61,911 nt of DNA from Syntrophomonas sp. UBA4911. Lineage in GTDB: Bacteria; Bacillota; Syntrophomonadia; Syntrophomonadales; Syntrophomonadaceae. A program made the translations under genes and the position numbers. Position 1 is the first letter of the stretch; each line of letters opens with the position of its first letter. The notes under the pieces were generated by a model, which did no database searches, had not been told where the DNA came from, and worked only from the letters and a program-made list of their open reading frames with translations. Of this stretch, positions 39,238-57,754 are shown one piece after another. The stretch lies in the NCBI GenBank assembly GCA_002398105.1, contig DHCD01000010.1:55683-117593 (forward strand), read 5' to 3'.

Positions 39238-39448
39238 CCTATCCCTGTCATTAAAATAAATAATTACTATTGAGCGATTTTGGCCTCACAGCAGTTTTGA
39301 TATAGACTGTGGAGCAGACATTGGACCTCTTGAATCATCAAAACCTCAATCTGCAGAATACTGATATGAAAAAGTATTAGCGGCTGTTCCCATATATCTG
39401 TTTGATTTAATTTCCACCCTGTGTTAGACTAAAAATAATTAAATCAAA

Positions 39449-39542
39449 TTCTCCGAGCTTTTAAGCCTAAAGTCAAAGGCCATGGTTTAGGAGCCTGGGT
39501 TCGAGGGGAAACACTCGAGCCTCCCCTATTGTGGAAAGGAGC
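39449..39542 (+). promoter_or_regulatory. Moco (molybdenum cofactor) riboswitch aptamer, copy 1
   Basis: 5' CUCCGAGC, a variable hairpin, CUGGGU, hairpin UCGAG-gggaaaca-CUCGA, GCCUCCCC, then 3' GGAAAGGAG with GGAG pairing back to the 5' CUCC. Matches the Moco RNA motif as I recall it. Sits in a Moco gene neighbourhood. Confidence 0.7.
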
Positions 39543-39559
39543 AGCATCAGATTTGTCGT

Positions 39560-39605: not shown

Positions 39606-39617
39606 AACTTAATACTG

Positions 39618-39710
39618 TTCTCCAAGCCTCTGGACCTGAAGAGTTATGGTCCCCAGGCCTATGGGTATAGCTGGAAACGGTTATGCCTCCCCGTATTTTT
39701 GGAAAGGAGA
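39618..39710 (+). promoter_or_regulatory. Moco riboswitch aptamer, copy 2
   Basis: 5' UCUCCAAGC, hairpin CUGGACC..GGUCC(CC)AG, CUAUGGGU, a hairpin with a GGAAAC loop, GCCUCCCC, then 3' GGAAAGGAGA (P1 is UCUCC/GGAGA). Same architecture as copy 1, with different helix sequences. Confidence 0.7.
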
Positions 39711-39753
39711 CCTAATGTGGCTTATAACTGTTACTTATAAGCCAGGGAGTGGG

Positions 39754-50737: not shown

Positions 50738-50744
50738 AATCGCC

Positions 50745-50773
50745 TTTACATTGACTGAGGCTTATGCTAATAT
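50745..50773 (+). promoter_or_regulatory. Candidate promoter of the T-box leader
   Basis: TTTACA, a 17-nt spacer, then TAATAT. Confidence 0.35.
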
Positions 50774-50810
50774 TTAAACAATATTTCAAATGCCATGAAA
50801 AAGTAAAGTA

Positions 50811-51062
50811 GTTGCGTGGAGTTATACAGAGAAGAGATGTCACCGGCTGTAAGCATCTCTATAACAAAGCCCGATGAAGTTCACTTTGGAGCACCCGGCT
50901 GAAACGAATGCAAGTAGGTCGTGGCGGAACTCCCGCCGTTAAAAGGGAGGGGATATCGGATAAACCTGTATCTTTTACTAAGCGGGCCTGATTAAGGCAA
51001 TTTGGGTGGTACCGCGGGTAAGCGACAAGCTTCTCGTCCCATAGGGATGTGAAGCTTTTTTT
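50811..51062 (+). promoter_or_regulatory. T-box riboswitch, probable Phe (UUC) specifier
   Basis: K-turn-like base (UGCGUGGAG..UGGAGCA), AGAGA box, specifier-loop pattern GAAG-UUC-A-C, T-box sequence AAUUUGGGUGGUACCGCGG (50999-51017), CUCGUCCC, and a 14-bp terminator (51027-51057) followed by a T-run. Confidence 0.8.
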
Positions 51063-51082
51063 ATGGATGAGTGGGGTTTTAG

Positions 51083-51180
51083 CCTGTATCCTTATTGAGT
51101 GACTGCAAGGTAAACTGGGTGGTACCGCGGGAAGTGTTTATAAACCTCTCGTCCCATAGGGACGAGAGGTTTATATTTTA
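51083..51180 (+). promoter_or_regulatory. Second T-box 3' module (stem III-like, T-box sequence, terminator) lacking its own Stem I
   Basis: CCUGUAUC...AAGG.AA..UGGGUGGUACCGCGGG...CUCGUCCCAUAGGGA repeats the first module with a 118-nt period. Its own 12-bp perfect terminator is AACCTCTCGTCC/GGACGAGAGGTT, followed by UAUAUUUUA. Confidence 0.6.
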
Positions 51181-51194
51181 TCAGGAGGTGTAAC

Positions 51195-52037
51195 ATGATT
51201 AAATTAGCCAGTCGCGAAGGCGGCGAAATGCTGGTGGCAAGAAAGAACCGGGAAGAAGTCAGCCTGACAAAGGTCAAGGGATGCATTATCGGGGGAGAAC
51301 AATTGGCTGTAATAGCCGGGCCCTGTGCGGTTGAAAGTGAGGAAATATTAAAAGAAACCGCTTTCAAAGTCAGAGGATGCGGAGCGGCCTTTTTAAGGGG
51401 AGGAGCTTATAAACCGCGCACTTCGCCTTACAGCTTTCAGGGACTGGGTGAAGAGGGACTGAAGATTCTGGCCCGGGTGGGTGAGGACATGAATATGCCG
51501 GTAATTACGGAATTGATGGATAGCGAAGATATGGAATTAGTGGTTGAGTATACGGATATAATCCAGGTTGGAGCCAGGAATATGCATAATTTTGCCCTGC
51601 TCCGTAAATTGGGAAAAATAGATAAACCCGTAGTATTGAAGCGGGGACTGGCGGCCACCATTGAAGAATGGCTGCTGGCAGCCGAGTATATTCTGGCCGG
51701 GGGGAATAATCAGGTAATATTGTGTGAGCGGGGAATTCGCTCCGCCGAGCCCTGGACCCGTAATACCCTGGATCTGTCTGCAGTGGCTCTGGTTAAAGAA
51801 CTGTCCCACCTGCCGGTACTGGTCGACCCCAGTCATGCCACCGGGGTACGCAGCCTGGTTACTCCGATGGCCAAGGCTGCTATCGCCGCCGGGGCTGACG
51901 GTATTATGGTGGAAGTCCATCCCCACCCGGAAAAAGCCCTGTCCGATGGTGAACAGTCCCTAACTCCTAAAGGATTCAGCCAATTGATGCGGACGATCGA
52001 ACCGGTGGCCCGGGCGGTGGGAAGGAGAATACGCTAA
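51195..52037 (+). CDS. aroF: 3-deoxy-7-phosphoheptulonate (DAHP) synthase, type I-beta
   Basis: [10 protein letters not shown]...[16 protein letters not shown]...ERG...DPSH, the KDO8P/DAHP-synthase I-beta pattern. AGGAGG RBS. Confidence 0.88.
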
Positions 52038-52888
52038 TGGCTTGCGCTGTACTGGGTCCCCGAGGAACCTTCAGTGAGGAAGCCGCTTGCAGCTATTGGG
52101 GGAAGCGGGATGATATAGTGGCGGCCGCTACCATCAGTCAGGTTTTTACGCTGGTAAGCATGGGTGCGGTAGAAGAAGCCCTGGTGCCGGTAGAAAATTC
52201 TCTGGCCGGTTCAATAAAAGAAACCATCCGGTGTCTGCAGGAGAACCGGGTCAGAATACGAGGGGAAATGAACCTTCCTATAAGGCAAGACCTGATGGCC
52301 TGTAAAAAATACCGCCTGGAGGAAATTGAATGGCTGATTACCCAGCCCGTCGCTCTTCACCAGTGCCAGGCTTTTATTGCCCGGCATCTGTCCGCGGTGC
52401 GAACTGAAATCTGTGCCAGTACCGGCAGAGCGGCTGCCATGCTGCGCCGGGAGGTCAGAAAGGCAGCCGCCATCGGCAATAGCCAGGCAGCTATGATTTA
52501 CGGGCTGAAGATAATATATCCGGATATAGCCGGTGAAAATAATGTTACCCGTTTTATTCACATCGTCCAGGAAAAGAGAGAAACTAAAGGGGATAAAAGC
52601 AGCATCATTTTTTCTCTGGCGGATAGAGCAGGCGCTTTATATGAAGTTTTAGGCATCTTTGCCGGCAGGAACCTGAATCTTAGCAAGATTGAATCCTATC
52701 CCGGCCCGAATGCGCGAGCCGGTTATAACTTTTACATTGAAGTGGATACTCCGGCCGGTGAAGACCTGCAGCCGGCGCTTGAGGAAATGGAGCGATTATG
52801 CCCCCGGATAAAATACCTGGGCTCATATCCCAAAGCTCTTCCGCTAGCAGATGATAAATTGGAGGTTAAAAATGATCATACATTTTGA
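52037..52888 (+). CDS. pheA: Prephenate dehydratase
   Basis: PDT domain (VPVENSLAGS, TRF motif NVTRF) plus a C-terminal ACT domain (ALYEVLGIFA...NLSKIESYP). Overlapping TAATG junction with aroF. Confidence 0.88.
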   Translation: MACAVLGPRGTFSEEAACSYWGKRDDIVAAATISQVFTLVSMGAVEEALVPVENSLAGSIKETIRCLQENRVRIRGEMNLPIRQDLMACKKYRLEEIEWLITQPVALHQCQAFIARHLSAVRTEICASTGRAAAMLRREVRKAAAIGNSQAAMIYGLKIIYPDIAGENNVTRFIHIVQEKRETKGDKSSIIFSLADRAGALYEVLGIFAGRNLNLSKIESYPGPNARAGYNFYIEVDTPAGEDLQPALEEMERLCPRIKYLGSYPKALPLADDKLEVKNDHTF

Positions 52889-57543: not shown

Positions 57544-57754
57544 AGCAAAAGTAAAAACCTTTAAAAGTTAATCCCTGCTGTGTACGTGTGAATTGCCGTT
57601 AAGTTTTTGCCAACACCAAAAACTAGGGAGCCTTGTCTCTGCGTGAGGCTGTAGACCCACATCTTTTAGTGGGAAACATTAATCACGAAGGAGGGCACCC
57701 ACCTGCGATGCAGGTTTAAACTACGGCGCCACGGCTCGGTGGGGTTTTTGTTTG
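57544..57754 (+). ncRNA. ssrS: Probable 6S RNA
   Basis: A non-coding interval of about 200 nt with its own promoter and a terminal stem followed by a U-run (GGUGGGGUUUUUGUUUG). The 5' AAACCU can pair with the 3' AGGUUU. The position between aspS and tcdA (yrvM) matches the B. subtilis 6S-1 (bsrA) locus as I recall it. Confidence 0.55.

Follow-up and report, generated by a model that had tools for sequence, protein, structure and literature searches.

A partially tandem tRNA-Phe T-box leader upstream of aroF-pheA in Syntrophomonas, with a covarying alternative pairing that may connect one decoding domain to two discriminators

The window analysed here is a stretch of 61,911 nucleotides (nt) from Syntrophomonas sp. 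UBA4911 (contig DHCD01000010.1, positions 55,683 to 117,593 of the forward strand). An intergenic region at 50738-51194 lies between a metallo-beta-lactamase-fold gene and aroF; relA/spoT and dtd are located upstream of the former, and aroF is followed in the 3' direction by pheA, a radical-SAM gene, hisS, aspS and 6S RNA. The region carries a leader made up of a complete Phe T-box (module 1) and, behind its terminator, a second discriminator and terminator lacking Stem I (module 2). This layout is already known, and the element belongs to the class of partially tandem T-boxes. A covarying alternative pairing, in which a hairpin in the linker of module 1 is set against a strand just before Stem III of module 2 (Stem III-2), was not found in the searchable literature and appears to be the new element. 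Coordinates of the features are collected in Table 1.

When the window was scanned with cmscan at the gathering threshold, module 1 gave a full match to the Rfam family RF00230 (108 bits compared with a gathering score of 93, model positions 1-219). An earlier note, made from the letters of this DNA, had proposed a complete Phe T-box upstream of aroF-pheA; the full match and the UUC specifier bear this out. All the standard elements of the canonical single transcriptional T-box, of the B. subtilis tyrS / glyQS type (RF00230), are also found in module 1: the K-turn region, the AGAGA and distal loops, the specifier loop, Stem II with S-turn, Stem IIA/B with F-box, Stem III, the T-box bulge and the terminator. 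What the leader here has beyond the canonical form is a linker hairpin, placed between Stem IIA/B and Stem III, and a second discriminator.

The specifier has the context GAAG-UUC-A and is located immediately 5' of the 3' strand of the Stem I base helix. At this position, directly before the equivalent helix, Tyr and Trp relatives have GAA-UAC-A and GAA-UGG-A respectively. The codon was assigned as UUC (Phe) because of the alignment with these relatives, the third-position-C rule and the presence of DAHP synthase and prephenate dehydratase genes downstream. A GUU specifier frame was rejected, as a C follows it, it would violate the third-position-C rule and the downstream genes point to Phe. 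The U of the bulge in T-box sequence 1 pairs with A73 of the tRNA-Phe encoded in the same genome. This T-box bulge, 7 nt long and starting with UGGN, with which the NCCA end of uncharged tRNA-Phe pairs, is retained in both modules. Terminator 1 was present in every fold computed; a simple terminator scan overlooks it because of one U.U mismatch.

Module 2 (51083-51181) consists of Stem III, T-box sequence, antiterminator and terminator only. A permissive scan of 51030-51260 gave a 5'-truncated RF00230 match at 51030-51159 (28.1 bits, E 9e-5), the convincing part of which is the Stem III and antiterminator portion only; one full and one partial 3' match had been anticipated in the earlier note. 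Modules 1 and 2 align with a mean column identity of 78%. The motif CCUGUAUC at 50965-50972 is repeated 118 nt downstream at 51083-51090, and the T-box sequence UGGGUGGUACCGCGGG recurs in identical form at a distance of 113 nt. The copy of the 3' half that had been claimed at 118 nt is thus present, with two minor corrections: T-box sequence 1 starts at 51003 and not at 50999, and terminator 2 has 14 or more pairs and not 12 (14 perfect pairs at 51142-51172 by reading of the sequence; 17 over 51139-51175 as counted by the scan tool).

Table 1. Positions of the leader elements and regulated genes in the window.
Feature	Position	Strand	Description and basis
Candidate sigma-70 promoter of leader	50745..50773	+	TTTACA, 17-nt spacer, TAATAT; TG upstream of -10
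Complete T-box, module 1	50786..51044	+	Stem I, Stem II, Stem IIA/B, linker hairpin, Stem III-1, antiterminator 1; full RF00230 match
AGAGA	50828-50832	+	Read from sequence
Specifier codon UUC (Phe)	50880..50882	+	In GAAGUUCA 50876-50883; RF00230 alignment
F-box CCGUUA and Stem IIB strand GGGAG	50936..50950 (F-box 50936-50941)	+	3' end of Stem IIA/B pseudoknot
X5, GGGGAUAUCGGAU	50949..50961	+	5' strand of linker hairpin, shared partner of X3-1 and X3-2; near-invariant in about 70 leaders of the order
X3-1, CCUGUAUCUUU	50965..50975	+	3' strand of linker hairpin, module 1; loop AUAAA 50960-50964
Stem III-1	50982..50998	+	RF00230 alignment
T-box sequence 1, UGGGUGGUACCGCGGG	51003..51018	+	Bulge UGGU; sequence reading and RF00230
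Terminator 1, AAGCUUCUCGUCCC-AUA-GGGAUGUGAAGCUU	51027..51064	+	Helix 51027-57, 13 pairs, one U.U mismatch, U7 to 51064
W2	51065..51094	+	Complementary to linker hairpin; ends in X3-2 CCUGUAUCC 51083-51091
Stem III-2	51099..51113	+	Weak in the window genome; module alignment; clearer in relatives, GGCC-GUAA-GGC type
T-box sequence 2	51116..51131	+	Identical to sequence 1, bulge UGGU; sequence reading, partial RF00230 match
Terminator 2 and U-rich tail AUAUUUUAU	51139..51181	+	14-17 pairs; terminator scan
Regulated genes	51183..52888	+	Shine-Dalgarno sequence AGGAGG 51183-51188, then aroF and pheA; open reading frame list
aroF (DAHP synthase)	51195-52037	+	ATG at 51195; Pfam PF00793
pheA (prephenate dehydratase with ACT domain)	52037-52888	+	Pfam PF00800, PF01842

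The U-tract of terminator 1 and module 2, which starts with the strand X3-2, are separated by only 18 nt, so that there is no room for a second Stem I, as had been argued. A second Stem I or specifier was found neither in the window, by full and permissive RF00230 scans, nor in 12 related leaders. Each of these 12 related partial tandems (leaders of other genomes are cited below by locus number, L) gave one full RF00230 match at the gathering threshold, even with a spacer of 60-150 nt; the partial tandem L136 gave no match at this threshold. A minimal specifier hidden in the spacer, which would make the element a cryptic full tandem, is extremely unlikely. Support for it was not found, there being no conserved UUC or conserved loop in the spacers, and the 18 nt available in the window shrink to as few as 9 nt in relatives. 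The spacer outside the strand W2 (see below) is unconserved, and the long-spacer relatives also have no second full Rfam match. In L125, the Rfam full-length alignment spans 387 nt and connects the Stem I of module 1 with the module 2 discriminator, the discriminator of module 1 being treated as an insertion. Leaders with three discriminators were absent from the leader set, and no other partial tandem was found in the genome of the window, where the aroF leader stands alone.

Partially tandem ('partially double') T-boxes have a complete T-box followed by a Stem III/antiterminator/terminator unit without Stem I, and the layout here is identical. The comparative survey of Vitreschak et al. 2008 (RNA 14:717) is said to have described partially tandem cases. 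The term "partially tandem T-box" is used in the Zhang 2020 review, where the passage on these elements calls their mode of action unknown and the supply of tRNA to a discriminator without Stem I is given as an open T-box question (PMC7583486). Fully tandem T-boxes, as in the trp, ilv-leu and thrS leaders of Bacillota, likewise have two serial terminators responding to one kind of tRNA, and these are expected to sharpen the response (PMC12452182; PMC9413887). They are, however, built of two complete units, both equipped with a Stem I and a specifier, and two tRNAs are needed, whereas a single decoding domain is present here. The window contains one full RF00230 match only. In contrast, L083 (G031:C12:498810-499620), from another family of the order, contains two complete tandem Phe T-boxes with two full RF00230 matches, and the distinction from full tandems drawn in the earlier note holds. 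After terminator 1 of L083 neither W2 nor another strand complementary to the hairpin is present, which makes it a natural contrast to the partial tandem.

The leader was then compared with those of relatives, namely Syntrophomonadaceae and Syntrophomonas metagenome-assembled genomes, and module 2 proved to be conserved, a comparison that the earlier note had also had in view. The whole 409-nt leader including module 2 is present in 38 of the 41 relatives. All eight sampled relatives of the same genus have it (in one of them split over several contigs), as do most genera of the family and three further families of the order. The segment from Stem IIA/B to terminator 2 is found in 81/125 genomes of the order. 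Owing to its presence in the 38 relatives and in these genomes, module 2 cannot be a chance occurrence. A strict pattern was defined by two T-box sequences 85-115 nt apart, a spacing too close for a second Stem I. It was matched in 60/125 genomes of the class and in 23/387 sampled genomes of the phylum outside the class; the reversed control gave one match. The leaders outside the class have Phe, Trp or Tyr specifiers, and the genes after them code for DAHP synthase, TrpD, a PaaK-like ligase, 2-oxoacid:ferredoxin oxidoreductase, an ABC substrate-binding protein and a symporter.

The window has a weak Stem III-2 and an interrupted U-tract at terminator 2, as might be expected if module 2 were a duplicate in decay, or a constitutive attenuator whose only effect is to lower basal expression. 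Module 2 is nevertheless kept across the order and in many other families, and its T-box bulge is nearly invariant across the leaders. The helix of terminator 2 covaries among relatives, and in both modules an intrinsic terminator is kept as the alternative to the antiterminator, whose 3' strand it shares; both terminators are maintained, as had been supposed from their sequences. A plain terminator would have no need for a 16-nt T-box sequence. In both modules the variable base of UGGN is C where the leader is of the Trp type (four leaders) and U where it is of the Phe/Tyr type (about 95 leaders, one exception apart). L139, which has a UUC specifier, is the sole leader in the set with a mismatch of UGGN between the modules (U in module 1, C in module 2). 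A constitutive attenuator is disfavoured because the bulge of module 2 is near-invariant and UGGN follows the identity of the tRNA, and loss of function by decay or simple attenuation is accordingly very improbable. Module 2 very probably acts as a functional second checkpoint. In the reading favoured here, whose chance as a whole, with the strand exchange described below, is about even, the leader attenuates transcription: one platform would serve two serial discriminators, and aroF-pheA would be transcribed only after passage of the polymerase through both terminator 1 and terminator 2. Three options for module 2 had been put forward earlier; rebinding of the same tRNA is favoured by the conserved linker-pairing strand described next, and the minimal specifier and the constitutive attenuator are disfavoured.

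The linker between Stem IIA/B and Stem III-1 forms a hairpin in which X5 (GGGGAUAUCGG) pairs with X3-1 (CCUGUAUC), with a conserved C.Y mismatch and a minimum free energy (MFE) of -6.5 kcal/mol. X5 has an alternative partner in the ~20-25 nt just before Stem III-2, and the two pairings are mutually exclusive. This second partner, X3-2, forms the end of W2 and the start of module 2, and the spacer which precedes it is unconserved, with a length between 9 and about 150 nt. In both modules the T-box sequence lies at a median of 34 nt from the GUA core of X3. When the linker was compared with the 33 nt before Stem III-2, the best duplex fell on X5 in nearly all leaders and was better than that of shuffles. 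For W2 and the linker of the window, RNAduplex gave -20.1 kcal/mol compared with -15.2 for shuffles (p 0.06); for the same duplex p was <=0.005 in 6 of the 7 same-genus relatives tested.

The hairpin is also seen in a single T-box of the same genome that lies outside the window (contig C66:7110-7400). This T-box has a probable CUC (Leu) specifier, one discriminator and the linker hairpin GGGGAUAUCGGAUC-UUAA-GAUCCCGCAUCC; it precedes the gene of a 2-oxoacid:ferredoxin oxidoreductase gamma subunit, as judged from the N-terminal sequence. Since the hairpin is present in a single Leu T-box, it predates the duplication.

The alternative pairing was analysed for covariation over 52 distinct haplotypes. 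For X5:X3-2, 95.0% of cells are paired, and double changes occur at 7 of 10 pairs (38 cells), a signal that comes from the seven flanking pairs because the three core pairs are fixed by the location of the motif. None of 500 shuffles reached this signal, and slid registers gave 22-51%. The corresponding values for X5:X3-1 are 92.3% paired and double changes at 6 pairs. In the family of the window, X5 has GGAUAU and X3-2 has GUAUCC; in another family and many other lineages these become GGGUAU and GUACCC. In a distant family X5 reads CCAGUAUCGG and X3-2 reads CCGGUACUGG or GGGUACUGG, with CCAGUAUC/GGGUACUGG as a compensatory set, and one genus has AUCAAAA in X5 together with UUUUCGUAU in X3-2. 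X3-2 complements X5 better than X3-1 does in the distant family. X3-1 has decayed and X3-2 is intact in L068, L135 and L136, and further lineages (L125-128, L148) have a degenerate X3-1 with an X3-2 that is intact or the better complement.

The complementarity extends upstream of X3-2. The preceding 10-15 nt complement the loop of the hairpin, which holds in most lineages, and often also the start of X3-1. With 43 distinct loop sequences, loop complementarity was -9.3 kcal/mol for cognate and -6.1 kcal/mol for non-cognate combinations, and the fraction of apical-loop bases paired was 0.72 and 0.54 respectively; 0/20000 permutations reached the cognate value in either case. Long or unusual loops in L019, L134, L151 and L154 are mirrored base for base, G.U pairs included. 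In the window itself X5:X3-2 comprises 8+2 pairs and the loop complementarity is weak. These comparisons, within a set of about 95 related leaders, suggest that the X5:W2 pairing is probably a selected structure.

Other explanations of these strands were tried and rejected. A same-sense copy of the hairpin, as the strand upstream in module 2, reached -6.1 vs -5.2 only, and was rejected because the complement model scores far better and the G.U pairs show pairing at the RNA level. A local mini-hairpin of module 2, GGAU...AUCC, does exist in L132 and L139; as a general feature it was rejected, since its register is not consistent, several leaders lack it and a 9-nt spacer leaves no room for it. 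Pairing of CCCG in X3-2 with CGGG of its own T-box, proposed by RNAalifold, lacks covariation and is broken in the GGGUACUGG clade. Inspection by eye of X3 and X5 against tRNA-Phe revealed no convincing complementarity. A hidden Tyr codon (UAU/UAC in GUAUC/GUACC) was dropped because the change is compensatory with X5.

The mutually exclusive pairings could provide a means of bringing the second discriminator to the decoding domain. During the decision phase of module 1, X5 would be paired with X3-1 and discriminator 1 would be placed beside the decoding platform. Uncharged tRNA-Phe would stabilise antiterminator 1, upon which the polymerase would pass terminator 1 and make W2. W2 would then nucleate on the hairpin loop and open the hairpin, and its invasion would lead to a helix of ~20 base pairs (bp) with the whole of module 1 as an apical domain. 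Discriminator 1 would be removed from the junction by this change, and Stem III-2 and antiterminator 2 would take its place beside Stem IIA/B with equal spacing. The acceptor end of the tRNA held by the platform, either the same molecule or a new one, would thus be checked a second time. With two serial checks a sharper response would be expected, for which about 115 nt are spent instead of a whole second T-box. The alternative pairing of X5 rests on covariation, whereas the succession of these steps and the transfer of the tRNA are inferred. That X5:W2 hands the decoding platform to the second discriminator, and that a single decoding domain is read twice, possibly with the same bound tRNA, is put forward tentatively, as falling a little short of an even chance. 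Displacement of an earlier helix by a later-transcribed strand is the general logic of transcriptional riboswitches (e.g. PMC9756952), and the proposed step would likewise be of this kind. Unlike strand exchange in riboswitches, the exchange here would re-wire which expression platform joins the sensor and would not decide termination.

Folding energies and the distribution of the strands provide several points that weigh against the proposed exchange. Equilibrium folding gave P(X5:X3-2) > 0.5 in 75/76 leaders for the transcript from X5 to just after X3-2, and in 70/76 for that from X5 through Stem III-2. The same was true of only about 30/76 once T-box 2 or terminator 2 was included (from X5), and of 18/76 whole leaders folded from Stem I. 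Nearest-neighbour folding is context dependent and the support from it is partial or mixed. In the window, the swap wins only in the first snapshot and loses by about 2 kcal/mol as soon as Stem III-2 is part of the transcript; the full-length MFE structure keeps hairpin 1, W2 is among the weakest of the set (by the p value given above) and Stem III-2 is poor. Most sequences share one haplotype, and the compensatory changes that arose independently are estimated at perhaps four to eight rather than dozens. Short regular expressions served to locate X5 and X3, which fixes the three core pairs by construction. The existence of the helix, moreover, need not imply a hand-over of tRNA.

Part of the later drop in pairing probability is due to predicted pairing between the two palindromic T-box sequences. 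As full-leader folds predict such T-box-to-T-box pairing via GGUACC, and with it a risk of misfolding, the long-range helix may be real and serve to insulate the near-identical modules from each other. It might also be a site of double-stranded RNA processing, for example by RNase III, through which the read-through leader would be trimmed or destabilised, given that a helix of ~20 bp has the size of an RNase III substrate and that cleavage by RNase III is described for a T-box leader, the S. aureus met leader (PMC7913692). Neither insulation nor processing would need X3-2 at an X3-1-like distance from the T-box sequence, or a helix that starts directly at the Stem IIA/B junction, and a purpose of this sort is quite unlikely.

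The exchange also does not extend to all partial tandems. The linker hairpin is present and X3-2 absent in L123, L124, L140, L141 and L152, the linker hairpin is lacking in L121 and L122, and module 2 of L132 and L139 has its own local hairpin, as mentioned above. From the leaders without X3-2 or hairpin it follows that the swap is not required for every second discriminator, and in the sequences compared it is common but not universal among partial tandems. These leaders, and full-length folds which have no consistent preference for the swap, would fit a module 2 that acts as a free-standing discriminator, capturing the 3' end of any uncharged A73 tRNA from solution without the need for Stem I, the X5:W2 pairing being irrelevant or secondary. 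An isolated discriminator domain is reportedly a weak tRNA binder that senses aminoacylation. However, a lone discriminator would be nearly devoid of amino-acid specificity. Both X3-2 and the anti-loop strand show conservation and covariation with X5 and the loop, whereas the remaining spacer is free in sequence and ranges over 9-150 nt, and module 2 retains the 34-nt spacing of module 1. Capture of tRNA from solution by a free-standing module 2 is unlikely.

A candidate promoter of the leader was found by a consensus scan. From this pattern match alone, 50745-50773 is likely to be the leader promoter. Two further RNA features were detected elsewhere in the window: a 6S RNA gene downstream of aspS at 57569-57749 (RF00013, 94.5 bits), and tandem Moco/Tuco riboswitch aptamers at 39439-39558 and 39608-39725 (RF01055, 71.8 and 69 bits).

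Another T-box of the same genome, outside the window, is the leuS leader (contig C15:6137-6478, L235), with CUC (Leu) as its specifier. Its Stem III loop encloses a complete tRNA-Ala(GGC) gene, with G3:U70 and an encoded CCA, about 20 nt before the T-box sequence. Both the leader and the nested tRNA are conserved: every same-genus relative and most genera of the family have them, and so do other families of the order. We are not aware that a tRNA inside a T-box leader has been described before.

Partially tandem Phe T-boxes of other genomes (L090, L095, L135, L137, L118) are located before genes for PaaK-like AMP-binding ligases and the alpha subunit of 2-oxoacid:ferredoxin oxidoreductase. Their position suggests control by tRNA-Phe of reductive Phe synthesis from phenylacetate in anaerobes.

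The comparative evidence turns the question of tRNA supply to a discriminator lacking Stem I into a concrete, testable model with specific nucleotides. If the model is true, this would be the first riboswitch sensor re-wired to successive expression platforms, and the question left open by the 2020 review would be answered; the sharpness of a two-checkpoint tandem riboswitch would be obtained from one sensor, a principle that could serve in the design of synthetic RNA regulators. Should the model fail, the locus would be an ordinary member of a known, unexplained class. The targets gated by sister elements are genes for phenylacetate-CoA-ligase-like proteins and 2-oxoacid:ferredoxin oxidoreductase, as well as Trp synthesis and aromatic transporters. 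In the syntrophic Syntrophomonadaceae, the leader would gate DAHP synthase, the first committed aromatic step, and prephenate dehydratase on the charging of tRNA-Phe.

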